From an uncultured bacterium (GTDB lineage: Bacteria; Patescibacteriota; Saccharimonadia; UBA4664): 64,000 nucleotides of DNA. Where the stretch lies: NCBI GenBank assembly GCA_963720265.1, contig CAVRET010000002.1:1006069-1070068 (forward strand). The letters are read 5' to 3'. The translations under genes and the position numbers were made by a program. Below the pieces are notes generated by a model that saw only the letters and a list, made by a program, of their open reading frames with translations, searched no databases and had not been told where the DNA came from. Each line of letters begins with the position of its first letter. The first letter of the stretch is position 1. This document shows positions 31,659 to 64,000 of the stretch, one piece after another.

Positions 31659-32244
31659 CCGCTCATCGAGGCGGCAGATCCGGATCCAGGATGTGCGCGA
31701 CGGGATCCTTATGCTGCCGGATAACAACTACCGGGTAATCCTTGCGGCTTCGTCGCTTAACTTTGAACTTAAAAGCGAAGACGAGCAGGACGCTATTATC
31801 GATGCGTTTAAGAGCTTCTTAAACTCGCTGCCGTGCCCGGTGCAGTTGCTCGTACGCACGCGCGAGCTTGATGTTGCCCGGTACCTGGACGGGTTTCGTG
31901 AACTTGAGGGCGCAGAGAGTGAAGGCGTCTACCGGGCGCAGATTGCCGGATACCGGGCGTTCGTACAAAGCCTGGTTTCAAACAACAAGATCCTTGCGCG
32001 GCGGTTTTACGTGGTAGTCGGCCGGACGGCCACCGACAAGGAATCGTTTGAAGCGGCTGGCGAGCAGCTTATAACCGACGCCGATATCGTAGCAAAGGGC
32101 TTAAGCCGGCTAGGCATTCAGACGCACCGCCTGACAAGCCTTGAGGTACTCAATTTGTTTTATAGCTTTTACAGTCCCGATGGCGCCAAGCGACAACCGC
32201 TGACGCCTCTTATCATGCAGACGCTTCGAGATGGGTACTTGTAA
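31636..32244 (+). CDS. VirB4-like ATPase, N-terminal fragment. Start inferred at GTG 31636 with AGGAGG 5 nt upstream; the track ORF 31264-32244 starts too early.
   Basis: RQIRIQDVRDGILMLPDNNYRVILAASSLNFELKSEDEQDAIIDAFKSFLNSL matches the VirB4/CagE N-domain. Ends at TAA 32242-32244, in the same frame as the downstream ATPase ORF. Confidence 0.55.
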   Translation: MSALPKNNRSSRRQIRIQDVRDGILMLPDNNYRVILAASSLNFELKSEDEQDAIIDAFKSFLNSLPCPVQLLVRTRELDVARYLDGFRELEGAESEGVYRAQIAGYRAFVQSLVSNNKILARRFYVVVGRTATDKESFEAAGEQLITDADIVAKGLSRLGIQTHRLTSLEVLNLFYSFYSPDGAKRQPLTPLIMQTLRDGYL

Positions 32245-32250
32245 GGGGAA

Positions 32251-45389: not shown

Positions 45390-46199
45390 ATGTCAAAGCG
45401 TACCTTCTACTTGGTACCGCAACAATACCAATGGCTATCCCAGGCACTACCTGCGCCCGTAGCCAAGACCAAGCCGCCGGTGGCAAACGAAGAGCTACTC
45501 GGTGGTATTTTGTTTGTGCTCAAAACTGGCAGCCGGTGGCAGGATATCCCAACTACCATCTGTCCGCATGACCCCAGCACCTGCTGGCGCCGACTCAGCT
45601 TTTGGCGTGGCCGAGGAGCGCTGGTCGGGACTTGGCGTGAGGTTCTCGGACTGCTCGACCGGCAAGGCAAAGTCGACCTGTCACTCGGCGCGTTAGATGG
45701 TTCGCTCGTCCAGTCACCGGCTTTTAAGGATGGCACTGGTTACTCCGGCAAACACCACCGGACTGGCACCAATATTTCGCTTGTGACTGACAAACAAGGC
45801 TTGCCACTGGCCAACGTCCTGGCTAAAGGCAACCGTCATGACCCGACCAATGCCGAGGCCACTATCCGGAAGATTCGCGTGGGTGCTAAGCGGCGGGTTA
45901 AACAACTCAACGCCGACAAAGGGTACGACTCTCGTACCTTCCGGACTGCCTTACGTAAGCGCGGCATTAAGGCCAATATCCCTGAGCGCATATTCAAGAA
46001 GCGGCGCAAACGCGGCCGCAAGCCCAGTTACGACAAAGCAACGGCCAAATTCCGGGCCTTTGTCGAGCGCACTAATGCCTGGCTAAAATACTTCCGTAAG
46101 TTACGTTACCGGTGGGAACGAAAGAAAAGCATGTTTCAGGCCTTTGTTGATCTGGCCTGTCTGCTTATCTGTTTGCGGCGGGTTGGAGATATGCAATGA
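45390..46199 (+). mobile_element. IS5-family (DDE_Tnp_1) transposase gene
   Basis: 269 aa. GAGGAA SD upstream. Conserved IS5 blocks LDGS..., LVTDKQGLPL and NADKGYDS. Confidence 0.8.
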
Positions 46200-46658: not shown

Positions 46659-47849
46659 TCAGAGAACCTGACTGGAAGTGTAGGGCTGGACGCAGCCCTT
46701 CTTGCAGTTGTTGTGTACCGGTCGTTGGTTGCGGGGCCTGACCTGCCTGTGTGCCACCTGGGGGCGGCACTGGGACCGGCAGGTGTTGGAGCAGCAGACC
46801 CGCTTGGACTTAGGCGGCGGGCAGTAGCTGCACTTGTTGTTGACCCACTTGTAGTACTTGGTCGTGCAGGGCGCGGGCTTCAGCTTGTGCACGACCACGA
46901 CCGTCGTGACCACGTGCTTCACCGGCGGGCAGTAGGTGCACACGTTGTTGACCCACTTGTAGTACTTGGCCGTGCAGGGCGCGGGCTTCGGCTTGCACAG
47001 GACGCACTTGCCGTTCACCTTGACGGTTCCCTTGACGCACTTCAGCGGCGTGTTGTGATGCACGACCACCTTCGTGCACGTGCAGCGGACCACGGGAGTG
47101 ACAACACGCTTCGTGTGGTACACGACGACCACCGGCGTGGACGGCCCGGTGCAGAACCCGTTGACCAGCTTCCATCCCTTGATGGTACAGGGGTTGTGGC
47201 CTATCTTGTGGACGGCCACAGGCTTCGGCGGGCACTTCACGCACTGGCCGTTCACGAACTGGTATCCGTAGTGGTTGCCCGAGCAGTTCGGGTTGTGAGA
47301 CACGACCGGGCGGCAGTTGTTGTCGCCGTAGCCGTTCGGCGGGCCGCGGCTCCCGTAGGGGCTATTGCAGCTCACGGGCGGCCGGTTCACCGGGCACTTC
47401 GGCTGTATCCACCCCATCTGCTGCGGCGGGCTGGACCCGTTGTTCGGCGGTCCCGTGGACACGCCGCCGTACTGGCCACCTCCCTGAGCGGCCGTGACGT
47501 TGGAATCGGTCGAGTAACCCTTGTGAGGGTTTCCCTGCTGGTCGTTGAGGCCGGGGCAGTCGCCGCCGTTCGGCTGGGCCGGGGTGCTGATGCCGGTGTT
47601 GTCGCCGGTCAGGGCGAAGTTCCCGATGCCAGAGTGGCTCCCGAAAGCGCCGAGAAGGAGCATGGCGCCGCCGGCCGCGATGGCGACAGGCAGAACAAAG
47701 CGGGCAAGTAGCCAGCGCGCGTAGGCGGGCATCCCGCTGCCACGCGGCGGCCTAGCCACCAACGTACGGATCTTATGCATGGAACAACAGCCTTCCTGAA
47801 TCGGTTCCTGCGGTTTTTTCGATGAACTACGAACAACGAACTCGAACAC
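46659..47849 (-). CDS. secreted/membrane-anchored cysteine-rich repeat protein (very GC-rich)
   Basis: 396 aa. N-terminal TM. Tandem modules CxxKPKPAPCT(A/T)KYYKWVNN(V/K)C(T/S)YCPP. The plus-strand ORF 46635-47711 has antisense-artefact composition. Confidence 0.5.
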   Translation of the reverse strand: MFEFVVRSSSKKPQEPIQEGCCSMHKIRTLVARPPRGSGMPAYARWLLARFVLPVAIAAGGAMLLLGAFGSHSGIGNFALTGDNTGISTPAQPNGGDCPGLNDQQGNPHKGYSTDSNVTAAQGGGQYGGVSTGPPNNGSSPPQQMGWIQPKCPVNRPPVSCNSPYGSRGPPNGYGDNNCRPVVSHNPNCSGNHYGYQFVNGQCVKCPPKPVAVHKIGHNPCTIKGWKLVNGFCTGPSTPVVVVYHTKRVVTPVVRCTCTKVVVHHNTPLKCVKGTVKVNGKCVLCKPKPAPCTAKYYKWVNNVCTYCPPVKHVVTTVVVVHKLKPAPCTTKYYKWVNNKCSYCPPPKSKRVCCSNTCRSQCRPQVAHRQVRPRNQRPVHNNCKKGCVQPYTSSQVL

Positions 47850-49650: not shown

Positions 49651-50148
49651 CTAGCGCGTCACCCGGCCGCTCTCAGCATCAAGCGCCTGATCAAGCAGTT
49701 TCACCAGCCTGGCGTTGGCAGCGGTCAGCTGCTGCCGCGCCTGTACCAGGTCAGTTATATCAATATTGACTGACATCAGGCCATTGATGTTATCGGCATC
49801 GTCGTACGTTGGCTCAATGCTCAGGTCAAAGGTACGCGCTTTGTGGCCGTTCAGCGGCAGTGACACGGTTTCATGATAGGGCCGACCGGTTGCAAGGACC
49901 GTGCGCTTCACAGCGGTAAGTCGCTGCACTTCGGGCTGGTCGTGCACAATATCCTCAAGCCGTTTACCAAGGATATCCATGCCGAGATCCGGACTGGGAT
50001 TGGATACGTGAATATATTTGAGGTCGAGATCTTCCAGGGCGACACTCACACGCGGATGGGAGAACGTCTCCAGATTCTTGGCCGCCCGCGTCAACATCCG
50101 TTTAACTTCTCTCATCTCGCCTCCAATTGTCTTTATCAAGCATATCAC
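49651..50148 (-). CDS. stand-alone PAS-domain protein
   Basis: 165-aa ORF with a PAS-like core (...VALEDLDLKYIHVSNP...ILGKRLEDIV...). Confidence 0.45.
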   Translation of the reverse strand: MICLIKTIGGEMREVKRMLTRAAKNLETFSHPRVSVALEDLDLKYIHVSNPSPDLGMDILGKRLEDIVHDQPEVQRLTAVKRTVLATGRPYHETVSLPLNGHKARTFDLSIEPTYDDADNINGLMSVNIDITDLVQARQQLTAANARLVKLLDQALDAESGRVTR

Positions 50149-50553
50149 GCTGGTAACACGCCCATAATGCTTATGTTTATTGGCTTAGGAAAGCAAAAAA
50201 CCCTTGACGCGCTGCGAGGCTGGCGCTACATTAAAGGTACCTCTACTTTGTGCAGAGGTACCTACCGAAAAAGGAGATGAGGAGGCAACTTCGAGTCACA
50301 CCGTTCGGGTCTGATAGGAGCAGTGAGTGAGGTTGGTGGGGAGGTCGCAAGGCCAAACGAGTAGCCACACGACAGCCACTGAAGCAGCTGGTGAAAACTA
50401 GGCCGACCATCGGTAAATGGCTGTCCGTTTGAGGGGGCGAGCAATCGCATCGGAGGATGAAACTGCAAGATGGGCAAGACGCCGCTGGGAAACCGGTGGC
50501 GTTTTTGTGTTGAGTGCGACCAAGTGTTTCCGCTTGTGCTAAACTAACAGGTA

Positions 50554-52494
50554 ATGAGCGCGCGCGTTGTGAGGGGCTTAACCCCTGTTGGAAAACCGCA
50601 TCCTGCCGCCAAGTGGAGTCTGCTCATGGCACTATTGGCGGTGGTTGTGCTTGGTGTACCGGGCATTGCTTCGGCCGGCCAGCCTACGGTGCATGCGCCC
50701 ACCGGCCCGGAGTCGGGCGGGGTTTTTACCGGACCCTACACCTTTGATACCTATATAAACTGCAGCGGCGGGGCCAGCTTTAACAGCTCCTACACCAACT
50801 CCCTTGACGGCACTCATGCATTTGCGTTTTATGGTGCGGCCGACGGTTCGCTACTTGTTACCATCGACGGCGGCGGACTGCTGCTCATTACTTCCTGCGG
50901 CAATCCGCTCACCGGCCCGATGACTAATGTGGCCGACTACACGGTCACGAAAGGCAACCCACCCAGCCCCACGCCGACGCCGTCAGCCACGCCCTCACCC
51001 ACGCCACGGCCCAGCGCCACACCGACGCCGCCGGCCGGATCGGGCAGCAGCAAGGGCAGTGGAAGCAATGGGGGAGGCAACGCCGCCGCGGCCTCTGGCG
51101 GCACGGCGGACACTCCAACGCCGCAGACGAATCCCGGCCAGCCGACCCCGGTTGCAACCACGCCGACCGCGGCCGGCACCCCGGTCCCAACCGGCGCGCA
51201 CAACAAAACGCCGGCGGTCCAGTTGCCCTTTAGGGTTTCAGGCCAGCCGGAAGGTAAGCAGTTCCCGCTCACCTTGGCCATGATCCTGCTTGGCCTGGCG
51301 TTACTCGGAATATTAATAGTTGTCCTGAGCCGCTCACGGCATGCCCGCGAACGACTCCACTCCGCGATCATGCCGCTAAAATTACGGTTCGAACCGCACT
51401 GGCTGCGCTTCCGTCATGCTGTTAGGACACACTTGCCCACGCCGCACGGCCTCAACGAACCGAAGAAAAAAGGCCTGAGCGCGCACCATCACTCCGGCCG
51501 CCTGCTTGCGCACCATCACACGTCGTATCCAGCGCTGGCCTTCTTACTCCTGGTCTCAGCCATACTGGCCGCTGCAGCTTCATATGCCACACAAGCTGAC
51601 AGCTCGGACAGCTCAGTGGTGTCGCTGACCGTTAATGGACCGCCGCCGTCAACCGCGCCCACAATTGACGACCCCACCACCGGCGACCACGTATCAACGA
51701 ATAGCATTACGGTCCGCGGTACCTGCCAAAGCGGGCTATTGGTTGAAGTTGACCGCAATACCGACTTTGCCGGCGATACCATGTGCGACGCGAGCGGCCT
51801 GTACTCCGTGCTCATCACCCTGGTGCCAAATGAGAACGACCTTGTGGCTCGCCACGCCGACGCGCTTGGGCAGTACGGGCCGGATTCAAATGTCGTGATC
51901 GTTTTCTACGACGTGCCCCCGCCCCCGCCGTCTCCATCGCCGTCGGCTTCACCAACCCCGCTCCCGTCCGGCTCATCCGGATCCAGCTCGGGTACTAAGC
52001 ACACTGCCCAAACCGCTACCCCCACGCCTGCACCCCCAGCCCAGCCCGCGCCGTTGCTTATCAGTGCCGGTAATCAGTTGTATCGCGGCGGCGAGGTCCA
52101 AGAAACTATCCAGTGGCCGGTCACCATCACCGGCGGCCGCGGACCCTACGTCGTCACCTGGGAATGGGGCGACGGCAGCGCAACCGATTCGCTCGTGGCG
52201 CCGGCCGCCGGCCCGGTACAAATGGCCCATGCGTACGCGAATCCCGGATCGTACCAGGTGACGATTCGGGCTACGGACGCCAGTGGTAACCAAGCCGTAC
52301 TGCAAGTCGTGACTGTTATTAATGGCACGGCGACAGCCGCCTCGGCCATCGGCAATTCCAAGCCGGATGCCGGTGTCTTGATAGCAATCTGGCCGACACT
52401 GAGCCTATGCGGCCTTCTCGTGCTTTGCTTCTGGTTGGGAGAACGACACAAGCAAGCTATCGTTGACAGGCTGCGCAATACCGGTTACGCTTGA
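50554..52494 (+). CDS. large surface protein: signal peptide, beta-rich domains separated by P/T/S linkers, C-terminal TM anchor
   Basis: 646 aa. PSPTPTPSATPSPTPRPSATPTPP linkers. C-terminal hydrophobic helix followed by a basic tail. Confidence 0.6.
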   Translation: MSARVVRGLTPVGKPHPAAKWSLLMALLAVVVLGVPGIASAGQPTVHAPTGPESGGVFTGPYTFDTYINCSGGASFNSSYTNSLDGTHAFAFYGAADGSLLVTIDGGGLLLITSCGNPLTGPMTNVADYTVTKGNPPSPTPTPSATPSPTPRPSATPTPPAGSGSSKGSGSNGGGNAAAASGGTADTPTPQTNPGQPTPVATTPTAAGTPVPTGAHNKTPAVQLPFRVSGQPEGKQFPLTLAMILLGLALLGILIVVLSRSRHARERLHSAIMPLKLRFEPHWLRFRHAVRTHLPTPHGLNEPKKKGLSAHHHSGRLLAHHHTSYPALAFLLLVSAILAAAASYATQADSSDSSVVSLTVNGPPPSTAPTIDDPTTGDHVSTNSITVRGTCQSGLLVEVDRNTDFAGDTMCDASGLYSVLITLVPNENDLVARHADALGQYGPDSNVVIVFYDVPPPPPSPSPSASPTPLPSGSSGSSSGTKHTAQTATPTPAPPAQPAPLLISAGNQLYRGGEVQETIQWPVTITGGRGPYVVTWEWGDGSATDSLVAPAAGPVQMAHAYANPGSYQVTIRATDASGNQAVLQVVTVINGTATAASAIGNSKPDAGVLIAIWPTLSLCGLLVLCFWLGERHKQAIVDRLRNTGYA

Positions 52495-53666
52495 TTCAGG
52501 CCTGTTGTAGGCTTAACACTAAATCAAACGTTCGAAGCAAAACCAAACAAACAAAAGTGCCAAGAATTTCAGGATCATACCAATCGTCCAAGCGCCCGTC
52601 ACGTCACCCCGTGCTCTACCGCCGGATCTGGCTTGTGGTAGCTTTTGTTGTTACGGTCATTGCTGCAACGAGTGCGCCTATACATGCCGCCACTTTGTCG
52701 ACCGCTTCAGTGGCAATGTCTGATCCCAGGCCCAATTCCACGGCTGTTAACTATACCGTCACCGCCTCGAGCGTATCGTCCATTGCGCTGCGCTGCATTG
52801 AGGAAACCTACGTCACCACCCCCGGCGGTGCAACGGCTGTGCCTGGCTTCAGCTCCGCTGCCGCCACCGTCAGCGCCGGCTCAACCTTACTGAACGGCTC
52901 GACCGGCACCTGGAATGTCACCGACACTGCCAACAGCATTAAGTACGCCAACACCACCAACGCCACCGCGCCCAGTACTACCACCGGCGCCACGTTTATT
53001 GCCCAAAACATTACCAACGGCAGCACCGGTAACACCAGCTACTGGATTACGTTCCAGACTTTCAGCGACTCGGCTTGCTCAGTACCGGTTGACAACGCCA
53101 CCGTCGGCTTCATCTACAATCAGGGCTCCACACTCTCGCTGACGGTTAACGACACGCTCAGCTTCACAGTCAACGCCGTAGCAGCCAGCCAAGCTTGTGA
53201 TGGCACTACCACCACGGGTGCATCGACTGCCACCACCATTCCGTTTGGCACGGTCACGAGTGCCGCCAATGCAATTGTCTGCCAAGACCTCACTGCCGCT
53301 ACCAACGCGACTAACGGCTACACCATTTACGCGCGCTACACTGCGAAACCCACCAACGCGCTGAACCAAACCATTGCCGACTGGACCGGCACTAATGCCG
53401 CGCCCACGCCGTTCGCGGCCGCCGGCACAGAAGCCTACGGCTACACCACCAACGATGCGACGCTCGGCACCGGCACGGTCAACCGCTTTACTAACCCAGT
53501 CCAAAACTGGGCCGCCATGACCACCAGTAACGCCGAAGTCGCCTATGAGCCTAACGGTGTCACCAGCACCACCTACCGCATCGGCCACCAGGTCGGCGTC
53601 TCGCTCACCACCCGGCCTGGTACCTACACCACGACCGTCATCTACACCTGCACACCGATTTATTAG
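52491..53666 (+). CDS. secreted paralog 1 of a three-member family (variable N-half, conserved C-terminal ~180-aa domain ending YTTTVIYTCTPIY); WxL-protein-like architecture
   Basis: 391 aa. Signal peptide. The C-half is ~85% identical to the 56271-57401 product, with synonymous DNA divergence. Confidence 0.65.
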   Translation: MIQACCRLNTKSNVRSKTKQTKVPRISGSYQSSKRPSRHPVLYRRIWLVVAFVVTVIAATSAPIHAATLSTASVAMSDPRPNSTAVNYTVTASSVSSIALRCIEETYVTTPGGATAVPGFSSAAATVSAGSTLLNGSTGTWNVTDTANSIKYANTTNATAPSTTTGATFIAQNITNGSTGNTSYWITFQTFSDSACSVPVDNATVGFIYNQGSTLSLTVNDTLSFTVNAVAASQACDGTTTTGASTATTIPFGTVTSAANAIVCQDLTAATNATNGYTIYARYTAKPTNALNQTIADWTGTNAAPTPFAAAGTEAYGYTTNDATLGTGTVNRFTNPVQNWAAMTTSNAEVAYEPNGVTSTTYRIGHQVGVSLTTRPGTYTTTVIYTCTPIY

Positions 53667-53767
53667 ATAAAAGTAATCTTTGGCTGCGGCTTTTACGCAC
53701 TGTCACGGTTGACTCTAAAAAACGTCCACGCTAACATTGCCTTGCTCATTTACACCAAGACAGGGAA

Positions 53768-54181
53768 GTGATAAACGTGGACAAACCGAGGTGGCGAGCC
53801 ATCCAAGTCGTCCTGTTTTGCGTATTCCTTCCGTTCTACCTCGGCGGCTGGATGCTGATAGCCTTCGAAATTGTGCTGATCCCTGAAACCTTTGGGCTCG
53901 TCAAACACGCCCATCATCTGTCCGCGACTTGGGCACTAATCTTGGCGGTCGTGTGTCTTTTGGTAACGGCGAACAGTTTTCGGTTTTGGAAAACCGGAAA
54001 CAGCAAGCTCCTGTTTGAAATCCTGTCAGACACCAGCGCCCCTGAGGACCAAGCGCTCAAAATGAGCGAGAGTGGCACCGAGCCGCTTCCACCTACCGGC
54101 CAAGACGTCCCCGGTTGGATAGTTGCAGTCGCACTCATACTCTTGGTGGGTCGAGCACTGTGGACAAATAGGTCACAGTGA
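53768..54181 (+). CDS. small membrane protein with a C-terminal LPXTG-type sorting signal (LPPTG-QDVPG-WIVAVALILLVG-R), CscD-like
   Basis: 137 aa located between paralogs 1 and 2. Confidence 0.45.
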   Translation: MINVDKPRWRAIQVVLFCVFLPFYLGGWMLIAFEIVLIPETFGLVKHAHHLSATWALILAVVCLLVTANSFRFWKTGNSKLLFEILSDTSAPEDQALKMSESGTEPLPPTGQDVPGWIVAVALILLVGRALWTNRSQ

Positions 54182-54311
54182 CCGTTCAATATCGCTAGCG
54201 GGGTCACAACGACGATGGTTCCGCTACACCGAGCGCCGCGCGAAAAATCCGCGGCGTTTGATTGCAAACATAAGCACAATCCGCTACACTCCAATCAACT
54301 CTTGATGGAGT

Positions 54312-55436
54312 TTGTCATTGCAGCGCCTAATTCGCGCCGCCCGGGTTTTGGGTATTTCGTTACCTACACACCCGCGCCGGCCGCTACAATATTTTTTGAT
54401 CGTAATCCTGGGGCTCATGCTGTTGCCGGCCGCCCCAGTCGCGGCGGCAACGCTAAACACCGCCTCGGTTGCTCTATCTGACCCGCAGCCTGCCGCCACT
54501 GGTGTAACGTATGATTTCACCGGCTCCGGCGTTACATCCACGGCTATTAATTGTGTGCAGGTGACTATTGCAACTACTGCCACCGGCACCACCGCGCCCA
54601 GCGGTTTTGACGGCAGTAGCGCCAGCGTTTCGGCCGGGCAATCATCGCTCATTAACTCCAGCGGCGCAGGCTGGGGTCTCGTTGTTTCCGGCTCGGGCAA
54701 CAACGTTTTCAGCTACACCAATTCGTCCGGTGTCACGCCAAGTACGCTATCCGGCGCCACCTTCGTGCTTGCCAATATTACCAATTCTAATACTGCCGAC
54801 ACCGGCTACTTCTTTCAGCTCAACACCTACGCTAATACCAATTGCACGAGCTCGCCGGTCGACAATGTGGTCACGCAATTCATTAACACCAACGGCTCGA
54901 CCCTCTCGCTCACCGTTACGCCCACACTTAGCTTTACCGTGAACGGCATAAGTTCCAGCGCCAGCTGCGACGGCACCACCACCACCGGTACGTCCACTGC
55001 CACCACGATTCCGTTCGGCACGGTCACAAGTGCTGCCAATGCCGTGGTTTGCCAGGACCTGCAAGCCGCTACCAATGCCACGAATGGCTACACGATATAT
55101 TTACGCGACACCGGCCAGCCCACGAGCGGCAGCAATACTATCGCCAACGCTCCGGGCTCCAATGCCTCACCGGCCGCTTTTCCGTCGGCCGGCACCGAGG
55201 CCTATGGCTACACCACCAACGATCAAACTCTGGGCACCGGTACTCCAAACCGCTTCTATAATGGCTCGACCTACAAGTGGGCGGCTGCCACCACATCAGA
55301 CGAGGAGGTTGCCTACGAGTCCGCCGGCGTGGCCACCACCGATTACGACATTGCCCACCAAGTTGGCATTGCCTCAACAACTTTCTCGGGCACCTACACC
55401 ACGACCATTATTTACACCTGCACGCCGGTGTATTAA
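54312..55436 (+). CDS. secreted paralog 2 (same family as paralog 1)
   Basis: 374 aa. Same conserved Cys pair (CDGTTTTG...VCQD) and C-terminal ...TYTTTIIYTCTPVY. N-terminal extended-signal motif RLIRAARVLGI. Confidence 0.65.
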   Translation: MSLQRLIRAARVLGISLPTHPRRPLQYFLIVILGLMLLPAAPVAAATLNTASVALSDPQPAATGVTYDFTGSGVTSTAINCVQVTIATTATGTTAPSGFDGSSASVSAGQSSLINSSGAGWGLVVSGSGNNVFSYTNSSGVTPSTLSGATFVLANITNSNTADTGYFFQLNTYANTNCTSSPVDNVVTQFINTNGSTLSLTVTPTLSFTVNGISSSASCDGTTTTGTSTATTIPFGTVTSAANAVVCQDLQAATNATNGYTIYLRDTGQPTSGSNTIANAPGSNASPAAFPSAGTEAYGYTTNDQTLGTGTPNRFYNGSTYKWAAATTSDEEVAYESAGVATTDYDIAHQVGIASTTFSGTYTTTIIYTCTPVY

Positions 55437-55495
55437 CCTCTTACAATAGTTCTTCACATCCGAGCGCAAGTTGCGCCGACCGAAATGGAGCCGCC

Positions 55496-56095
55496 ATGGA
55501 CGATCCGGTACTGGACGATTTGGCAGTCAATCTGCTGGCGGCTATGCCGCCGGCACCGGGAATGCTGCTTGGAAAAATTTGGTCTGACCACACCGCGCAG
55601 CACGGCGTCCCATCACCCGAGACGTCCGAAGCCCAAGTCACCCCTGCTATGAGCCTCCTGCGGGCGGGCCTGGTTACGGTCAACGGTGCAGGTCCGCTAT
55701 GGGCCGTGACCGAAGCCGGTGGGCTTTTCTGCCTGGTTCTCAGCCGACCGTGGGTCGCGGTGCGCAGCCTCGAGCCGCAGCCACTGAGCAAAAAGCGGAA
55801 AGCCATCCATAGATGGATCGGGGTGATTGACCGACTCGTCGCAAACGGCAGCCAACTCATACTCACTATTAGGTGGGTGCTCAAGAACGATCAGCCCGCG
55901 CCCGACGTCATCGAAGAGATACGTGTAGTTGAGCTGACTCAGCGCAAGGTTTCCGCGGTCGCAGGCGACGACCACGCAATGAATCTGCCGCTGGGCGCAA
56001 CCGGCAACGATTTTGAAGTATCCGCGCCGGGAGGCGAGGTCGCCGCTCTGCTGACCGAAGCCGGCTTTGACCTCAGGTCGGCCGGCGCTAGATGA
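55496..56095 (+). CDS. hypothetical cytoplasmic protein embedded in the surface-protein locus. Start corrected to ATG 55496 with GGAG SD; the track ORF starts at 55277 inside paralog 2.
   Basis: ~200 aa with no TM. Confidence 0.4.
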   Translation: MDDPVLDDLAVNLLAAMPPAPGMLLGKIWSDHTAQHGVPSPETSEAQVTPAMSLLRAGLVTVNGAGPLWAVTEAGGLFCLVLSRPWVAVRSLEPQPLSKKRKAIHRWIGVIDRLVANGSQLILTIRWVLKNDQPAPDVIEEIRVVELTQRKVSAVAGDDHAMNLPLGATGNDFEVSAPGGEVAALLTEAGFDLRSAGAR

Positions 56096-56270
56096 AGGCG
56101 AGCACGCATGCGTTCGCAATGGCGGCCGGGACAAGCGAAACCCGGCCGCCTGGGGCCGGGGATTATCCCCCGGTTCCAAACCTGGAATTATTACTCACAT
56201 AGGTGTTGTAAAAACTGCTTGACGCCGGTTTATATAGCGGTTACGCTTAAAAAGACCTCATTAAAAAGTT

Positions 56271-57401
56271 GTGGAGAGAAGAGTGAAGAGAATTAGCCGT
56301 GCGGCTGAAGCCCTTGGGGTACCAACAGCCAGACAGTTCCGGGGGACGCTAGCGAAAATCCTAGCGTTTGTGCTTGCGTTTGTAAGTATTGGTTTGGCGC
56401 CTGGCCTGGCCAGTGCTGCGACGCTAAATACTGCTTCGGTCGCGCTCAGCGACCCGACGCCTAGTCAAACCGGTGTAAGTTACACCTTCACTGGCTCTGG
56501 TGTCACAACCAGCACGCCTATTAAATGCATTACCGTCCAATTCACCACCACTGCCGGTGGTTCAACCCTGCCCGGCAGCATGGGGATTACGGCTACCTCG
56601 CTCGATGCGTCGAGTAACTTTGTTCCGACCCCGAGCGGATTTGGCTCAGCCTCAAACCCCAACGGTTACACCGTGCAGTTCACCGACAGCTCCGGTGAGA
56701 CTCCGGCATCGAGCTCGGCCAGAACTTTGGAGCTTGACGGCATCACCAACGGCAGTACCGGTAACGTCGGCTACTACGAAACTGTATCCACGTTTTCAGA
56801 CACCGGCTGTTCCACCCCGATCGACAACGCTATGGTCCAGTTCATCTATAACCAGGGCTCGACCCTCTCGCTGACAGTCAACAATACACTGAGCTTCTCG
56901 GTCAATGCCGTGGCGGCTAGCCAAGGTTGCGATGGAACCACGACCACCCAAGCGTCCACAGCGACCACCATCCCGTTCGGCACCGTGACAGCCGCCGCCA
57001 ACGGTGTCGTCTGCCAGGATCTCACCGCTGCGAGCAATGCCACGAATGGATATACGATTTACACTCGTTACACCGCGCCACCAACTAACGCCCTGAACCA
57101 AACTATCCTACCTTGGACCGGCACCAACACAACGCCAACCACCTTCTCGGCACCCGGCACCGAGGCCTATGGCTACTCAACCAATGACGCAACGCTTGGC
57201 ACCGGCACCGCCAACCGGTTCGACAACAGCGGTAACTTCTACTGGGCCGCAGAAACCACCTCCAATGCTGAAGTTGCGTACGAGCCAAACGGCGTCACGA
57301 GCACCACATACCGCATCGGTCACCAGGTAGGCATCTCTCTCACCACGCACCCGGGCACCTACACGACGACCGTGATCTACACTTGCACCCCGATCTACTA
57401 A
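56271..57401 (+). CDS. secreted paralog 3
   Basis: 376 aa. N-terminal motif RVKRISRAAEALGV. C-terminus identical to paralog 1 (YTTTVIYTCTPIY). Confidence 0.65.
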   Translation: MERRVKRISRAAEALGVPTARQFRGTLAKILAFVLAFVSIGLAPGLASAATLNTASVALSDPTPSQTGVSYTFTGSGVTTSTPIKCITVQFTTTAGGSTLPGSMGITATSLDASSNFVPTPSGFGSASNPNGYTVQFTDSSGETPASSSARTLELDGITNGSTGNVGYYETVSTFSDTGCSTPIDNAMVQFIYNQGSTLSLTVNNTLSFSVNAVAASQGCDGTTTTQASTATTIPFGTVTAAANGVVCQDLTAASNATNGYTIYTRYTAPPTNALNQTILPWTGTNTTPTTFSAPGTEAYGYSTNDATLGTGTANRFDNSGNFYWAAETTSNAEVAYEPNGVTSTTYRIGHQVGISLTTHPGTYTTTVIYTCTPIY

Positions 57402-57422
57402 TCCGGTAAGCTAAACTACATC

Positions 57423-58397
57423 ATGATACGCGCAGCCATTTACCGCCGCTTGCCCCTCGTCGCAGGCGGCGTAATGGTGCTTACAAGCCTCCTGGTACCA
57501 ATGTTCGCCGCCGCTGCCAATACAGCCCAAGCTCCATCGAGCAGTGCCGCCACTCAAGGTTTCCAAATCTCGCCGCCCATCACCACGCTCAATATGAACC
57601 GCGGTACCAGCACCCAGGGCAACATGAAGGTGACGAACCTCACTGCCGGGACCCTCACGCTGGCGGTCTCCAAGGAGAATTTCGTTGCCCAAGGTGAAGA
57701 GGGCCAGGTCGCTCTTACCGACAACGCCGATCCACTTTATTCCTTGGCGCCGTACTTCACGCTTAGTACGAGCCAAGTAACGGTCGCACCAACCGCCACC
57801 GCCCAGGTAAACTACACCATTAGTGTGCCGCTCAACGCCGAGCCCGGCGGCCGCTACGGCTCGATCACGTTTACGTCTATCCCGGCGGCTCTGCCCAGCG
57901 GCCAGTCCGGCGCGGCCGTACGCCAACAATTGGCTGGGCTCATATTGCTGCGCATCAACGGCCCCACCCACGAGCAATTATCGATCGCCACATTCAAGAC
58001 CGACAAATCGTTTTACGAATACGGGCCGGTTACCTTTACCACCCGCGTGCAAAACGAGGGCAATGTGCACGAAAAGCCGTCAGGCCAAATCGTGGTAAAA
58101 AACATCCTTGGCGTGACCACTGACAAACTCGCCCTTGAGCAGCAATATGTGCTGCCCGGTGCGGTCCGTCGCCTCACCACCAAGCTTAACCGCCACTTCA
58201 TGTTTGGTCCCTATACCGCCACACTCACGCTGCACAATGGCACGATTCAAACCATCACCGCCAAGGCCAGCTTTACCGTCCTGCCCTACAAGCTGATCAT
58301 CCTGGTGGTGATCATTCTGCTCATCCTATTCCTGATCTTCTGGAAAGGCCGCCACCGCCTGGGCCGCGCCTTCAGGATCTTAAGCGGCCGCGAATAG
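57423..58397 (+). CDS. DUF916/CscA-like bitopic surface protein (signal peptide, ~270-aa ectodomain, C-terminal TM, short basic tail)
   Basis: Architecture and locus context only. Its ectodomain is homologous to the N-domain of 59759-61393. Confidence 0.5.
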   Translation: MIRAAIYRRLPLVAGGVMVLTSLLVPMFAAAANTAQAPSSSAATQGFQISPPITTLNMNRGTSTQGNMKVTNLTAGTLTLAVSKENFVAQGEEGQVALTDNADPLYSLAPYFTLSTSQVTVAPTATAQVNYTISVPLNAEPGGRYGSITFTSIPAALPSGQSGAAVRQQLAGLILLRINGPTHEQLSIATFKTDKSFYEYGPVTFTTRVQNEGNVHEKPSGQIVVKNILGVTTDKLALEQQYVLPGAVRRLTTKLNRHFMFGPYTATLTLHNGTIQTITAKASFTVLPYKLIILVVIILLILFLIFWKGRHRLGRAFRILSGRE

Positions 58398-58415
58398 CCT
58401 GCTATAATTACGCTA

Positions 58416-59762
58416 ATGGTTGTGAGTATACGTCAGCTCGGGTTGGCTTTGGCCGTTGTCGTGGTATTGTTGCCGTCGGCTGCGGCCGCTGATTTACTCC
58501 AAAGTACCCACTATCGTCTTGACCCCGATGTGGCCGATAATTTCGGCGGCACCGGCAGCTCGACTGATTATGGCCTCACCGATGCCGGCGGCGAGGCGGT
58601 CGTGAGCGCCGGCGCAAGCCAAAGCTACATGCTTTCCCAAGGTTACGTAGCATCGCTGCCGCAAAGCATTTCGCTCACGGTCCTACCCTCCGGCACCGAG
58701 GCCTATTATCCGCTCGACACCGGCACCGGCGACCGGGCCTACGACATGAGTGCCAATTCCAACGATGGCGCACTTACCGGTAACCCCAGCTGGATCACCG
58801 GCCAGGTCGGCGACGCACTGAGTTTTAACGGTTCCAGCCAGTACGTCACCATCCCCGATAACTCCAGTCTCGACCAAACCGGCGATCTTACCATCGAAGC
58901 TTGGGTTAATCTCGCAAATTACACCAACACCAACGAAATCGTAGCCAAAACCGTAGGCTCCGGCAGCACCAATACCACATACGACTTGCGTACCCAAGCC
59001 GGCACCGGCGATCTGCAATTTCTTGGCTATGATTCGGCACTACGCACGGTCACCTCCACCGTACCGGTCGGCACCGGCGGCTGGCACCAGGTGGCCGTTA
59101 CCAAAACCGGCGGCACCGCTACGCTCTACATCGACGGCCTAGTGGAAGGACAGGGGAGCGTCGGCACCACCACCACCAATACCAGTAATCTAAAACTCGG
59201 TGCTCGCGACGACCTTAATGCCTCGAACTTCTTAAACGGCGACATTGACGAAGTGCGGATCTACGACCGAGCGCTGTCAGCAGCCGAAATCTCAGGCGAT
59301 TATGCCGCAGGCGTTGCCGGCCTCGAGTTCGCGCAAACCATGCCGAACGTCAACCCCGGTACGTCGTCCACCTATGGCACCGACTGCGTCGTGCGGACCG
59401 ACGCCGGTGGCTACGACCTCTACATTCAAGAGCCCAATTTGCTTACCCACACTGACGGCCACACCACCATTCCGGCCATCTCATCAACCATTGCCTCTCC
59501 CGCAGCCTGGGTGCAAGGCACCACTCAAGGCTTTGGCTTCACGGTCGTAAACGGCACCCAAGTTGAAGCCAAATGGGGAACCAACCCGAATTACGACTAT
59601 GCTGCAGTACCCGCAACCTCCACCGATTTCCACTCTCGTGACGGCTTCACCGGCGGCACGCCCGAAACCACCAGTCTGCAGTTCCGGGCCGATACCTCCA
59701 CCAGCCAAAAATCCGGCACCTACTCAGCCACTATCATCTACACGGCGACGCTCAAACCGTGA
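58416..59762 (+). CDS. secreted LamG (concanavalin-A-like lectin/glucanase) domain protein with a family-type C-terminal domain
   Basis: 448 aa. ...LKLGARDDLNASNFLNGDIDEVRIYDRALSAAEI is a LamG_3 signature. C-terminus ...SGTYSATIIYTATLKP resembles the paralog family. Confidence 0.65.
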   Translation: MVVSIRQLGLALAVVVVLLPSAAAADLLQSTHYRLDPDVADNFGGTGSSTDYGLTDAGGEAVVSAGASQSYMLSQGYVASLPQSISLTVLPSGTEAYYPLDTGTGDRAYDMSANSNDGALTGNPSWITGQVGDALSFNGSSQYVTIPDNSSLDQTGDLTIEAWVNLANYTNTNEIVAKTVGSGSTNTTYDLRTQAGTGDLQFLGYDSALRTVTSTVPVGTGGWHQVAVTKTGGTATLYIDGLVEGQGSVGTTTTNTSNLKLGARDDLNASNFLNGDIDEVRIYDRALSAAEISGDYAAGVAGLEFAQTMPNVNPGTSSTYGTDCVVRTDAGGYDLYIQEPNLLTHTDGHTTIPAISSTIASPAAWVQGTTQGFGFTVVNGTQVEAKWGTNPNYDYAAVPATSTDFHSRDGFTGGTPETTSLQFRADTSTSQKSGTYSATIIYTATLKP

Positions 59763-61393
59763 CCACGCGGCATGTGCTCATGGGTCTCGGCATTACGGCC
59801 GGCTTAGGGCTAAGTCTGGCCGTTGCTCCTGCCGCCAGGGCCAGCACACCCGGCTTGCAGGTTAACCCGCTTGAGTACCAGAGCACACTCAAAGGCACTG
59901 ACATCGAAAGCGGCTTCATCGACGTCGCCAATCCCGGCGACACCAGCATCAACGTGGTCTCAAACGTTGAAGGGTTCCGCCAGGCTGACCTCGCCGGCGA
60001 TCTCGCCTTCTTTAATAGCACCCCGCTAAATCAGGGCATCGTGGTTGGCTTGCCGCAATTTAGCCTCGGCCCTCGTCAGGCCATACGCGTCAGCTTTTCC
60101 GTTGACCCTAGTCGGCTGCCCAAGGGCGGCGTCTATGCCGTGATTTTCTTCCGCACCGTACCACCGAACCAATCCAGCTCCAGCTCATTCATTGCCGAAT
60201 CGGCCAATGTCGGCACGCTGCTGTTGCTCCAAAACGGGCCGGCCCAAAAAACCGGCCGCATCAAACAGCTGAATCTTGGCTTTTGGCAGCTCGGGAGTGG
60301 CATTTCAGGCTCCGGTGAGTACGGGAACACCGGCGGAGATACAGCAGCGGCCGTGAAACCCGTTATTACCAGCCACGTTTGGCCGTGGGGCCGCGCCACC
60401 CGTTTCACCGGGCCCTTGGTATTGCCGGGATCCACGCGCGCGTTTAGCTTCAGTCGGCCAGGCTCGTACGCAGGTCTCTTGCCCGTCACCCTCATTGACC
60501 CCACCACCGGCGCCGCTACCACGCGCTGGGTCGTCGCCTGCACCGGCGGGTACGCCTTTGCCCTGCTTATCGCTGTAATCCTCGCACTGTTCTGGCTCGT
60601 CTACCACCTCACGCGCCGGGCCAAAACCGGCACCACCGCTGCAAAGCCCGTGGTGGGGTTCGCAGTCGGGCACGTCTACAAGCAAGCCTTGCGCCGCCAA
60701 AAGGCGCTTGGTTACCGCCTCAGTCTCAAAGACAGCCCGCCCGGCTGGATCGACACGCTCATGCTAGCTGACATGACGAAAACCTTCCGGGCTGCTAGCC
60801 TGCCGGTCTCAGGCCTCAACTACTTTACACTCGGCTCAGTCGAATATGGCCACTCCGCCCGCTTCAACCCCGACAACCCGCACTATCAGGCCTGGCTCGG
60901 CGGTTACCTTGTGCATTTTGACCAAAAACCAGATTGGACCCCGCAAGACTACTTCAAATTGCCCGAGGCCGACCAAATCAAATGGCTGCACCACTTTGGG
61001 GACCCCAACCCGGTCATGCAATTCGAGCACATTGGCGACCCTGAGCTCATCAAAAATGGCGACTTTACCGGCCGCCTGCACCTCTGGACCGGCACCACGC
61101 ATGCTGATATCGGCCCGGGCAACCGTAGCTTCCACACCCGCACCTACATGGAGGGCATGGCGCACGTCATGAACCAAACCCACCCCGGCCTCGGGCTCAA
61201 AGGCAAGAATTTCATCCCCGGCCCCAGCGATGCAGCCTATGAGCCGCTTAAGCTGGCCGGCTACCTGGCCATTTTCGAGCTCGAGCCAAACCTCGCCGCC
61301 GTCCTCTACGTCTGCGGCACCGGCGAGTTAGTGAAAAACTTGCGTGCGCTGGAGCAGTTGCTCAAAGACCACTTGGTGCTGGAAAAGAACTAG
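59759..61393 (+). CDS. bitopic protein: DUF916-like ectodomain, TM, and a ~260-aa cytoplasmic domain of unknown function
   Basis: 544 aa. TM AFALLIAVILALFWLVYHLTRR in mid-protein. Its start overlaps the previous gene. Confidence 0.55.
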   Translation: MTTRHVLMGLGITAGLGLSLAVAPAARASTPGLQVNPLEYQSTLKGTDIESGFIDVANPGDTSINVVSNVEGFRQADLAGDLAFFNSTPLNQGIVVGLPQFSLGPRQAIRVSFSVDPSRLPKGGVYAVIFFRTVPPNQSSSSSFIAESANVGTLLLLQNGPAQKTGRIKQLNLGFWQLGSGISGSGEYGNTGGDTAAAVKPVITSHVWPWGRATRFTGPLVLPGSTRAFSFSRPGSYAGLLPVTLIDPTTGAATTRWVVACTGGYAFALLIAVILALFWLVYHLTRRAKTGTTAAKPVVGFAVGHVYKQALRRQKALGYRLSLKDSPPGWIDTLMLADMTKTFRAASLPVSGLNYFTLGSVEYGHSARFNPDNPHYQAWLGGYLVHFDQKPDWTPQDYFKLPEADQIKWLHHFGDPNPVMQFEHIGDPELIKNGDFTGRLHLWTGTTHADIGPGNRSFHTRTYMEGMAHVMNQTHPGLGLKGKNFIPGPSDAAYEPLKLAGYLAIFELEPNLAAVLYVCGTGELVKNLRALEQLLKDHLVLEKN

Positions 61394-61489
61394 CTCTCAG
61401 CCCTCGCTCAATGTTGTAGAAATTACCGCCACAAATCTTGCCTATACCATAAGCGTAATGCTAAAATGCTTATGTAAGTCAGGTTGTGA

Positions 61490-64000
61490 ATGGGGCTAGG
61501 CCGCAAGCTTCGAGTTCAAGGCATTGTACTCGTAGCCGCCGGTCTCCAAATCCTAACAGCCCTCTTTGCCGTCTCGATTTTAGTGACGCCCACCGCCACC
61601 TCGGCGGTCAACCAAACCATCCCCTATCTCATCAATTTCCAGGGCCGCCTCACCGACAACAACGGCAACGTCCTGCCCGACGGCAGCTACAACATCAAGT
61701 TCCGCATTTTCAACGCCTCAACCGGTGGCACCAACGAATGGGAAGCCGACCGCGTCTACGGCACCTCGGACCACCGCGTCACAGTTGAAAATGGCCTCTT
61801 CAACATCCAATTCGGCGACACCTCGCAAGGGGACCCAACACTTTCGCCGAGCCTGTTTTCCGGCACCTACCCGCTCTACCTCGAGGTAGAGCTACCTACC
61901 CCAGCCTCCGCCACCTGCGCTTCAAACGGCTGCGCGGTCTGGACCGAAGGCGCCATGACTCCGCGCCAATCACTCGCAAGCAGTCCCTATGCTTTCAACG
62001 CCGACACCCTCGACGGCATTGATTCCACCGCCTTTGGCCAACTTTCCACCGCCAATTCCTGGACCGCCGCCAACTCATTTACGCCCAGCTCCGGCGTTGC
62101 CATCACACTTACCCCGGCCGCCTCCACCGACTCACTCGACGTCAAAAACTCCAGCGGTGCCACCCAAGCCTACTTCGATTCGAACGGCATCCTAAACGTC
62201 GGCCAAACCATCCAAGACACAACTACCACGGTCGACCTTGGCACCTCGGCCAACCCGTTCCGCAGCGGCTACTTTGGCACCAGCGTCCAAACCCCGGCCT
62301 TAAATGCCACGTCTTCCGGTGGCACCATCACCACCAATGCCGGCACCATCCAAAACTCGACCTCATCCACCGGCATGACCATCGACCTCAAGAGCTCGTC
62401 CAACACCACGCTCACCGTCACCAACTCCGGCACCGGCACGGCCGGAGTCAGCGTCGAAGGCGGCCTCACCATTGGCACCGGCCAAACCTACGATGTTGGC
62501 TCCAGTACGGGCGAAGGAGTCACCTGCTCGTCCGGCCAAATCCTTAACGCTATCGCCGTCACCGGCGGCGTGGTTACAAGCGGTTCCTGCGTTGCTGCCG
62601 GCGGCGGCGATCAAATGATAGGCGAGTGGAGTTCCGCAACGGCAGGTGCAACTACGAATCAACTAACCACGGTCCAGTTTACTGGCGCAGCCAATTCCAC
62701 TCCAAGCTTCAGCAACAGCCTGCACACCCTCACACTTCCATCCAACGCTTCTCGGATTGTGGTCGAAACCAAAGGGGCGGGCGGCGGTGGCGGTAGCACA
62801 GGCAGTGCCACGGCTTACTTGGGCGGCGGCGGCGGCGGCGAGGGTGGCTACTCCAAAGTCTCAATTACCAACAGCCTGGCTACAAACTACTACTTCAACA
62901 TCGGTGCGAGCGGTTCCGGCGGCGCTGGTAGTCTCGCGGCCGGCCAAAACGGTTCGCCCGGCGGCAATACTTGTTTCGGGACGAACTCATCTAATGCCTG
63001 CACCACCCCGAGCGCCGAAGCCCTCGGTGGTTCCGGTGGCGCCCTTTCTGACACTGCCGGTGCCAAGGCTGGTGGCGCGGGCGGCACTACATCCGGTGCG
63101 TCCGGCGATGTCACCACTGGTGGAGCTCCCGGCTGCAACTCTACTGGCGTGGCCAACGCCGCCCAAAGTGGTTGTGGCGGCGGTCAAGGTGGAGGCGTTG
63201 GGATTGCTTCAGTAACAGCCGTCGGCAACAATGGCGTAAACGGCGGTGGTGGTAGTGGAGCCATGGGTGAAGATGTTGCAACCACGGAGAAGGCGGGCGG
63301 CGCGGGCGGCGCCGGCTATGTTACCGTCACCGTCTACGTAACGGTTGCCGGCACCGGCAACCCGGCCACGCTACAGTCGTCGTACAGTAACGACACGGGC
63401 TCCGACGACATTACGCTCAGCTCCAGTCACCCTCTCATTGTGCGCGATAATTCCACGCCACTCGGCACGAACCTGTTCGAAGTCCAAGACAACGCTGGTG
63501 CCAACAACTACTTTGCGGTCTCAAGCTCCGGCATCTCCACCAACGGCACGGCTACGGCCGCCACCGTTAATGCCACCTCGGGCTATCAAGCCAACGGCAC
63601 GGCCGGCACCGGTGTAGCCTGCGGCGCCGGCACGGTCAACGAAGCCGCGACTTACACCGAAGGCTTACTCACTACGGCCGGCACCTGCACCGCCGTGCAA
63701 GCCGCGGGTAATTACATCGTGCAAGCGCCGGTTGGTACGGCCAACACTATTACCGCGGCCAGTGGCGCGCAAGACCTCGTATTAAAGGGTACCAACGGCA
63801 CCGGAACCGACCTGCTCGACATCTACAACACGGCTGTTTCCCCCGTGCTTACCAGTTACTTCGATAACAACGGTGCGTTCCACACGACTACTGCCATTTC
63901 AGCTCCGACATCAACGAACACCATTAATAGCCTCATTATTAATGGTGGTGCGGTGTCCGGCGTCACCGGCTACACGCAAGGCTCCGGCAGCTTCAGCGAC
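61490..64000 (+). CDS. giant secreted Gly/Thr/Ser/Ala/Asn-rich surface protein, 5' part (837 aa in window; continues beyond 64000); not in the supplied ORF track
   Basis: Frame 2 is open from ATG 61490 to the window end; I checked it codon by codon across the whole span. N-terminal TM/signal GIVLVAAGLQILTALFAVSILVTP. Long GGxG / TxT tracts suggest a beta-helix or fibre. Confidence 0.6.
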   Translation, partial: MGLGRKLRVQGIVLVAAGLQILTALFAVSILVTPTATSAVNQTIPYLINFQGRLTDNNGNVLPDGSYNIKFRIFNASTGGTNEWEADRVYGTSDHRVTVENGLFNIQFGDTSQGDPTLSPSLFSGTYPLYLEVELPTPASATCASNGCAVWTEGAMTPRQSLASSPYAFNADTLDGIDSTAFGQLSTANSWTAANSFTPSSGVAITLTPAASTDSLDVKNSSGATQAYFDSNGILNVGQTIQDTTTTVDLGTSANPFRSGYFGTSVQTPALNATSSGGTITTNAGTIQNSTSSTGMTIDLKSSSNTTLTVTNSGTGTAGVSVEGGLTIGTGQTYDVGSSTGEGVTCSSGQILNAIAVTGGVVTSGSCVAAGGGDQMIGEWSSATAGATTNQLTTVQFTGAANSTPSFSNSLHTLTLPSNASRIVVETKGAGGGGGSTGSATAYLGGGGGGEGGYSKVSITNSLATNYYFNIGASGSGGAGSLAAGQNGSPGGNTCFGTNSSNACTTPSAEALGGSGGALSDTAGAKAGGAGGTTSGASGDVTTGGAPGCNSTGVANAAQSGCGGGQGGGVGIASVTAVGNNGVNGGGGSGAMGEDVATTEKAGGAGGAGYVTVTVYVTVAGTGNPATLQSSYSNDTGSDDITLSSSHPLIVRDNSTPLGTNLFEVQDNAGANNYFAVSSSGISTNGTATAATVNATSGYQANGTAGTGVACGAGTVNEAATYTEGLLTTAGTCTAVQAAGNYIVQAPVGTANTITAASGAQDLVLKGTNGTGTDLLDIYNTAVSPVLTSYFDNNGAFHTTTAISAPTSTNTINSLIINGGAVSGVTGYTQGSGSFSD

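Follow-up and report, generated by a model that had tools for sequence, protein, structure and literature searches.

A predicted secreted, fibre-like protein with a phage tail-fibre-type domain at the end of a Pam-type pilus gene cluster in an uncultured member of the Saccharimonadia

The stretch of DNA analysed here (the window) comprises 64,000 nucleotides of an uncultured bacterium of the Saccharimonadia lineage UBA4664 (assembly GCA_963720265.1, contig CAVRET010000002.1, positions 1,006,069 to 1,070,068 of the forward strand). At its right-hand end, following a series of pilus genes, lies the beginning of a large gene that starts at position 61490 and is cut by the window edge at position 64000 (the target). 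The visible part of the target encodes a signal peptide, a conserved N-terminal domain (N-domain), a Thr/Ser/Gly-rich stretch, a glycine-rich domain of the kind found in phage tail fibres, and the start of a distal region, and we read its product, with moderate confidence, as a modular recognition fibre that works alongside the pilus. Saccharibacteria and other bacteria of the Candidate Phyla Radiation (CPR) live attached to host bacteria. The features of the target and of the genes preceding it are collected in Table 1.

Table 1. Features of the target gene and of the upstream pilus genes (positions in the window; aa, amino acids of the protein in question; ORF, open reading frame; TM, transmembrane; pLDDT, predicted local distance difference test)
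Feature	Position	Strand	Basis or remark
PamR-like pilus terminator/anchor, PKD-like domain, C-terminal TM segment	50554..52494	+	NF058578, E 1.2e-69, 234 bits versus equivalog cut-off of 300
Three paralogous Pam-type pilin genes, small ORFs between them	52491-53666, 54312-55436, 56271-57401	+	CPR_Pam_pilin_C, E 1e-7 to 1.6e-4
PamC/D-like chaperone 1: signal peptide, two beta domains, C-terminal TM helix	57423..58397	+	Sequence and TM prediction
LamG-pilin: Pam-pilin variant with Laminin_G_3 (lectin-like) domain	58416..59762	+	Laminin_G_3, E 4e-31
Chaperone 2 (protein X), 544 aa, TM segment aa 256-274, then extra ~270-aa cytoplasmic tail	59759..61393	+	hhalign
Sigma-70-like promoter match, TTGCCT-18-TAAAAT with TG	61438..61467	+	In 96-nt gap before target gene; weak evidence
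Target: Sec-type signal peptide, aa 1-39	61490..61606	+	n-region MGLGRKLRVQ, h-region ~22 aa, c-region TPTATSA
Target: family-defining N-domain, aa 40-195	61607..62074	+	Ig-like beta-sandwich ending in junction motif PYAFNADTLDGIDSTAF
Target: Thr/Ser/Gly-rich region, aa 196-372	62075..62605	+	T 19%, S 15%, G 15%; pLDDT 45-82
Target: TNF-like plus polyglycine (PGII) glycine-rich domain, aa ~373-620	62606..63349	+	Pfam Gly_rich_2 at aa 412-615
Target: distal Thr/Ala/Gly/Asn-rich region, aa 621-837, cut by window edge	63350..64000	+	pLDDT 40-83

Frame 2 is free of stop codons from 61490 to 64000 on the plus strand, giving 837 codons from the ATG, as the first-pass annotation of this DNA had reported; the gene was missing from the accompanying ORF list solely because it runs past the end of the window. 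An in-frame TGA at 61487 directly abuts the ATG at 61490, which leaves this ATG as the sole possible start, and the N-termini of homologs, of which more than 200 were found, align from residue 1 of the target. Using a codon-usage model trained on 12 long genes of the window, the log-likelihood was +0.33 per codon in the target frame and negative in the other five, so the frame reads as coding, a poor codon-usage score having been named earlier as grounds for doubting it. GC at third codon positions is 0.69, versus 0.67-0.74 in the neighbouring pam genes, and the probability of an open frame of 837 codons arising by chance is ~1e-10 to 1e-15. The residue counts (G 138, T 121, A 97, S 95, and N 60 out of 837) and two Gly runs at aa 431-435 and aa 445-450 bear out the earlier description of a G/T/S/A/N-rich protein with poly-Gly tracts. 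Apart from the (GGC)6 tract encoding the second run (62822-62840) and a 24-nt run at 63293-63316 (period 9, 2.7 copies), no DNA tandem repeats were found in the target, which is therefore unique sequence and not a repeat array. Six sites in 14 kb match the sigma-70-like promoter pattern listed in Table 1, versus 4.5 expected from shuffles, and the pattern is not significant alone.

The target begins with a hydrophobic segment, modelled by AlphaFold 2 (AF2) as a helix at aa 3-32, and cleavage is predicted after Ala39, before VNQTIPY. Signal peptides across the family share an (A/V/T)-x-A site, a basic n-region, and an h-region of ~17-22 aa; among 188 family members, the residue at position -3 is A, V, T, or S in 183 and that at position -1 is Ala in 173, and the cleavage site directly precedes a near-invariant (A/V)QT(I/V)PYK(I/V)NFQGR. 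Because this signal peptidase I-type motif is conserved, we infer that the segment is a cleaved Sec signal and not a membrane anchor; of the TM or signal segment proposed earlier, the hydrophobic stretch is thus real, the signal is favoured, and the anchor is not.

The N-domain that follows is modelled with pLDDT above 90 for aa 51-160. This region is common to all of the ~120 aligned homologs (31-72% identity), most of which share little or nothing with the target past ~aa 250, most of the high-scoring segment pairs ending between aa ~180 and ~260. The N-domain matched nothing in Pfam or NCBIfam, and a fold search with the N-terminal model yielded no significant structural neighbours, returning generic Ig-like folds with E values no lower than 0.05 (PDB) and 0.005 (BFVD). 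More than 129 homologs were retrieved, and every named source is a member of the Saccharimonadia/Patescibacteria, including the named close relatives P0123 and P0128 (Candidatus Saccharimonadia), and the close homologs all derive from metagenome-assembled genomes of Saccharimonadia/Saccharibacteria; judged by these homologs, the N-domain defines a large family almost entirely from the Saccharimonadia. Sequences 31-58% identical to the junction motif and to the first half of the N-domain also occur in proteins of other phyla and in IMG/VR contigs. The IMG/VR proteins concerned carry either the junction motif in the form NAxxLDGxDSxxF or a signal peptide followed by an INYQGRLTD-type first half (L092 6647-15382; L095 2049-3362; L086, L088, and L091), and one of the proteins with the junction motif is a 2911-aa fibre-like ORF.

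A word-indexed homology search with aa 395-837 returned two weak matches owing to low complexity, which an exhaustive HMMER search with the same segment solved. The latter retrieved six co-linear relatives (P0123, P0124, P0125, P0127, P0129, and P0130) of 1543-2396 aa, which are 55-65% identical to the target over aa 1 to ~700 and extend 700-1560 aa past the position of the window end. Going by the lengths of these relatives, the window probably contains one third to half of the target gene, and the full protein is probably longer than 1500 aa, within a range of 1500-2400 aa. An exact 42-mer from the window end had no match in the genome and metagenome contig collections searched, so the 3' end was not recovered and the relatives were used for length instead. 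The giant secreted protein suggested by the first-pass annotation is in keeping with these lengths and with the conserved signal-peptide motif.

The glycine-rich domain provides the clearest link to proteins of known structure. Its match to Gly_rich_2 (PF21722) scored 29.4 bits versus a gathering cut-off of 24.3 and covered profile positions 6-225 of 226. A single-sequence search of the PDB retrieved the mycobacteriophage Bxb1 gp33 'tail wing brush' (9d93, E 2.6e-5), and a profile search retrieved the cyanophage Pam3 fibre (E 1.6e-14) and Bxb1 gp33 (E 6.4e-13). The AF2 model of the domain has pLDDT values of 90-98, and Foldseek matched it to 9d93 gp33 (E 9.3e-10, TM-score 0.52 on the target) and to the Pam3 fibre 7ypx (E 1.1e-6), at 26-30% identity. 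The target additionally matches PHROG_863, 'tail fiber assembly' (E 1.3e-9), and the relatives of the module outside the CPR found by exhaustive HMMER searching are phage tail-fibre proteins that carry it at their C-terminus, nine of the ten tested matching tail-fibre PHROGs. A specific kinship with the actinobacteriophage protein gp33, which would appeal given that Saccharibacteria parasitise Actinobacteria, was dropped because the Pam3 and Bxb1 gp33 profile scores are equivalent.

The combination of a TNF-like fold with polyglycine II is described as the host-receptor-recognising tip of phage fibres (PMC9608196, PMC13243192, PMC13252515), among them Pam3 gp24 (7ypx/7yfw), Bxb1 gp33 (9d93), and Salmonella phage S16 gp38 (6F45), grouped under PF21722. 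The target resembles these tips over aa ~373-620, in sequence as well as in predicted fold, and on both counts the domain is homologous to them. It holds multiple GGGGxGG-type motifs, and the poly-Gly tracts, previously read as low complexity, are structural elements of a confidently modelled domain of phage-fibre type and not disordered low-complexity sequence. Identity among relatives dips within the domain, to 0.45-0.56 versus 0.65-0.81 in its flanks, a pattern resembling the variable distal loops described for Pam3 gp24 (PMC9608196). The extracellular glycine-rich (TG/GRD) domains of ALK and LTK belong to the same fold class, a TNF-like sandwich bearing a polyglycine-II lattice, and gave weak Foldseek matches (E 6e-3 to 6e-2); this similarity is distant and structural only, and the biology is unrelated.

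Given this kinship, we considered that the target might be a tail-fibre gene of an integrated phage, or of a tailocin remnant, that happens to lie beside a pilus operon. The PHROG_863 match, the homology of the Gly_rich_2 domain to phage fibres, and the presence of the junction motif and parts of the N-domain in IMG/VR contigs would all be expected of such a gene. However, the protein starts with a Sec signal peptide whose cleavage site is conserved, a feature for which virion proteins have no use, and dozens of species have the gene in the same place after the pam genes. The neighbouring genes are cellular, phage structural, integrase, and lysis genes were not found among them, and the target does not differ from the host genes in codon usage. 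Searching 50,697 phage genomes by tblastn with aa 40-200, 395-637, and 616-837 returned no match, although the low-complexity filter limits this result for the glycine-rich segment. Taken together, we regard a phage or tailocin origin of the gene as extremely improbable. The target also differs from the phage proteins in its build, since its glycine-rich domain lies inside a cellular protein that is Sec-secreted and has at least 837 aa, whereas the phage domain forms the tip, at the C-terminus, of a short fibre on the virion. Phage fibres are homotrimeric and often chaperone-assisted; no gp25/Tfa-type fibre chaperone adjoins the target in the window, the region downstream of it lying outside.

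The remainder of the visible protein is less widely conserved. The Thr/Ser/Gly-rich region is conserved in the closest relatives only, with 65-81% identity among the six co-linear ones, and is probably a shaft or linker. Beyond the glycine-rich domain, identity with the relatives drops after ~aa 680, from ~0.5-0.6 to ~0.2. The C-terminal halves of the co-linear relatives are T/A/G/S-rich and mutually divergent, with a CBM_4_9/GTA-spike-fibre domain in P0130 as the sole recognisable domain. Across the family, the C-terminal Pfam content varies and includes Beta_helix, CBM_4_9, Peptidase_S74, and Kelch, and in 77 species-representative loci the family ORFs range from ~420 to ~2700 aa, with tandem paralogs occurring. 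In P0126, the glycine-rich module lies ~750 aa further along than in the target; this displacement, together with the small number of loci that have the module, shows module shuffling. Neither Pfam nor the confident parts of the AF2 model revealed beta-helix, pectate-lyase, NosD, or collagen-like repeats in the visible part of the target. The beta-helical fibre proposed in the first-pass annotation therefore gives way to an arrangement of Ig-like and TNF-like/polyglycine domains, with Gly_rich_2 as the only Pfam match, although some paralogs of the family elsewhere do carry Beta_helix (PF13229). A search for the signature of a diversity-generating retroelement found no template/variable repeat pair in the window and no repeat involving 61490-64000, the C-terminal end of the gene lying outside.

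This modular variability bears on a second alternative, in which the target would be a structural envelope protein of S-layer type, as the first-pass annotation also suggested, or a generic matrix protein, and its adjacency to the pam genes would reflect co-regulation of surface components and not host recognition. A large, secreted protein rich in Thr, Ser, Gly, and Ala has a composition typical of envelope proteins, and the conserved N-terminal domain is of an anchoring type. Nevertheless, no SLH or other S-layer domain was found by Pfam or NCBIfam in the visible part, the extreme C-terminal variability between species and paralogs is unlike that of lattice-forming proteins, and modules of phage receptor-binding and carbohydrate-binding type are present. 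We therefore think a structural envelope role very doubtful.

Upstream of the target is a series of genes on the same strand that had been labelled a csc-like locus. Sequence comparison makes a CPR pilus operon of Pam type, a system reported by Troman et al. (bioRxiv 10.64898/2026.03.03.709456, 2026), the better description of this locus; this description follows from the NCBIfam matches to PamR and the pilins, from the architecture given in the preprint, and from profile-profile comparisons. The upstream genes appear to have the parts list of that system, in the form of one PamR-like protein, a set of three pilins, and a pair of chaperones, each with a C-terminal TM helix, and the PamC/PamD architecture matches chaperone 1. 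The three pilin genes contain the DNA repeat families D1, D3, and D4, and their products share the C-terminal motif GTYTTT(V/I)IYTCTP(I/V)Y.

The profile-profile comparisons were made with hhalign using families built from 82 loci. They matched the LamG-pilin to the pilin family (probability 98.8%, E 5.5e-16), as did its C-terminal ~150 aa alone (98%, E 1.8e-12), and this protein ends in GTYSATIIYTATLKP, akin to the pilins' GTYTTTVIYTCTPIY. These features make the LamG-pilin a candidate adhesive, lectin-type minor or tip pilin. Chaperone 2, the start of which overlaps the LamG-pilin stop, is a paralog of chaperone 1 (probability 100%, E 2.6e-53); its orthologs (290-420 aa) are without the ~270-aa tail, which has no Pfam match. 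We would like to note that it is the present analysis, and not the preprint as far as its accessible text extends, that assigns the LamG-pilin and identifies protein X as a chaperone paralog. None of the genes in the window was identified as a PamT-like single-domain pilin.

The sole resemblance of this locus to csc is a sub-threshold WxLIP_PGBD match on chaperone 1 (23.8 bits versus a Pfam cut-off of 27.3), which was probably the source of the earlier label, and the Pam models score better. Csc/WxL loci of Firmicutes are alike in that secreted surface proteins are clustered with a membrane-anchored WxLIP-type protein, but no WxL domain proteins were detected in the window locus. A weak, sub-threshold WxLIP_PGBD match was also seen on a Pam chaperone-like protein in another locus (L003 5912-6850), and matches of this kind hint that CPR Pam pili and the Csc/WxL loci of Firmicutes are distantly related in evolution. 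Two ORFs between the pilin genes are unassigned: one at 53768-54181 (+) encodes 137 aa with three hydrophobic segments, and the other at 55496-56095 (+) encodes ~200 aa without a signal peptide. The 272-aa form in which the latter is listed extends into the pilin gene before it, and its start is probably wrong.

The position of the target after these genes is strongly conserved. All five loci fetched by protein look-up have the order LamG-pilin, chaperone 2, family gene. In the 77 species-representative loci, of which 69 have at least 3.5 kb of upstream sequence and are counted as informative, the LamG-pilin and chaperone 2 lie directly upstream on the same strand in 53, with three further cases at a contig edge. 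This synteny upholds the earlier suggestion that the target is linked to the upstream locus, and supports a functional link between the Pam pilus and the family gene at the 3' end of the pam cluster. The Troman et al. preprint states that 'a tail fibre-like protein' co-localises consistently with pam operons and is central in the neighbourhood network (SSN), a statement with which the position of the target is consistent; the preprint gives no accession, architecture, or function for the protein, and its supplement does not mention it. The preprint's protein is likely a member of the present family. The family gene is often followed directly by a gene for a small single-pass membrane protein (140-240 aa), which in some cases overlaps the stop of the former. 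Clusters of these proteins include one of 20 (L021, L025, L026, L029, and others) and one of 8 (L001 6115-6834, L003 12745-13179, and others), and one cluster has a LytR_C-like domain. This protein may be a partner or assembly factor of the family protein; the matching region of the present locus is outside the window.

The same gene order raises the question of whether the target is itself part of the pilus, as a tip adhesin that is built in distally with the help of chaperone 2 and the LamG-pilin, like FimH or PapG. In 53-56 of the 69 informative loci, its gene directly follows those for a lectin-bearing pilin and a chaperone paralog, and its product uses the same Sec export route. The mature N-terminus, (A/V)QT(I/V)PYK(I/V)NFQGRL, has alternating hydrophobic residues and could be an interaction strand, and the preprint's model does not name a host-binding element of the pilus. 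FimH and PapG are likewise secreted products of genes at the distal end of an operon, beside a chaperone gene, with a presumed binding role in common with the target. However, they carry a C-terminal pilin domain completed by donor-strand exchange, and none is detectable in the target, which is also modular and 5-8 times larger. The pilin C-terminal (truncated Ig) domain was found in 0 of 318 family proteins, versus 90 control matches in the loci by the same hidden Markov model (HMM), and the NCBIfam pilin model (NF058581) matched neither the target nor six relatives. The N-domain showed no profile similarity to any Pam component (pilins, chaperones, and PamR; hhalign probability below 1%), and AF2 folds the N-terminal strand into the N-domain itself. 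Unlinked paralogs exist, and the LamG-pilin is already a plausible tip adhesin. On the HMM and hhalign results, we rejected a donor-strand pilus subunit as the primary reading. The earlier idea that the target is cargo of the upstream locus is not supported by the visible part, which is without the pilin C-terminal domain needed for donor-strand incorporation. Incorporation as a pilus tip adhesin thus seems to us distinctly unlikely.

We consider it probable that the target is instead a modular fibre for host or surface recognition, which acts as an adhesin or host-specificity determinant alongside the Pam pilus. In this scheme, the conserved N-domain would be the docking end and would fix the fibre either to the cell envelope or to the machinery of the Pam pilus, while the variable distal modules, including the glycine-rich domain, would contact the surface of the host bacterium, so that the fibre would act together with the pilus. 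The arrangement would be analogous to that of phage tail fibres, which combine a conserved attachment end with an exchangeable receptor-binding end. The fibre- or adhesin-like character proposed in the first-pass annotation fits a protein that is real, secreted, and large and has a glycine-rich domain of phage-fibre type.

Several observations weigh against this interpretation of the target as a recognition fibre. The absence of both N-domain likeness to Pam components and a pilin domain leaves physical attachment to the pilus unsupported, and the relatives in other phyla and IMG/VR indicate that the N-domain superfamily extends past the Saccharibacteria and that the domain is not a pilus-specific module. 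About 13 of the 69 informative loci are without pam neighbours and represent unlinked paralogs of the family, sometimes in the same genome. The matches of the upstream locus to the PamR and pilin models of NCBIfam are significant yet under the curated cut-offs, the pilin C-domain scores being 21.8-32.1 bits versus a cut-off of 55. Only 3 of the 77 species-level family loci have the glycine-rich module, and so it cannot be the general functional core of the family; in the target, at least 217 aa of window sequence come after it, and in the co-linear relatives 700-1560 aa do, whereas the phage version is a terminal tip. The part of the target seen here is its N-terminal third to half, and the function proposed for the family as a whole is drawn from domain homology and gene order.

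A broader version of the recognition-fibre proposal can be formulated, in which the family would be the host-range determinant of the Saccharibacteria and a cell-borne counterpart of phage receptor-binding proteins. The N-domain would dock on a Pam tip complex formed by the LamG-pilin, with chaperone 2 as assembly factor, and the distal modules, including phage-derived glycine-rich tips, would be swapped by recombination among paralogs and with phages, thereby setting the hosts. As a complete scenario, we regard this as unlikely.

The family is present in most of the species-level Saccharibacteria genomes examined, and its docking-type N-domain and exchangeable distal modules make it a candidate specificity determinant. 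If the recognition-fibre reading is true, episymbiotic bacteria and phages would share the same modular receptor-binding toolkit, and the family would offer a sequence handle for predicting the hosts of uncultivated CPR lineages. Even if it fails, the annotation of the locus is corrected to a pilus operon of Pam type that includes a LamG-pilin and a pair of chaperone paralogs. Domains of this type and the general modular-fibre logic were known already, and the co-location is mentioned in the preprint. We found no prior description of how the family is built, of its synteny in numbers, of the assignments made here for the LamG-pilin and the chaperone paralog, or of a phage fibre-tip domain in a Sec-secreted CPR protein, and a targeted full-text literature search returned no paper linking Saccharibacteria or Patescibacteria with tail-fibre proteins.

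Other features were seen elsewhere in the window. Type IV secretion genes, which are typical of Saccharibacteria, lie at 29782-33990 (+) and encode a type IV secretion system pilin/TrbL-VirB6-like protein and a VirB4/TraG-type ATPase. The gene at 9301-12129 (-), which has internal diverged DNA repeats of families D2 and D5, encodes a protein of 942 aa in which two Big_7 Ig domains are combined with a polysaccharide deacetylase domain. An IS4/IS5-type DDE transposase gene is located at 45390-46199 (+), next to an 81-nt near-tandem repeat at 46815-47003 (90% identity, spacing 108) that falls inside overlapping ORFs on both strands. Finally, GC skew is negative across 50000-64000 (-0.08 to -0.18) though all large genes there are on the plus strand. 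Second-codon-position GC in this region is 0.57-0.60 in the PamR-like gene, the three pilins, and the target, and 0.46-0.52 in the other three genes; as the negative skew coincides with the high second-position GC of Thr/Ala/Ser/Pro-rich proteins, it is compositional and not a replication signal.

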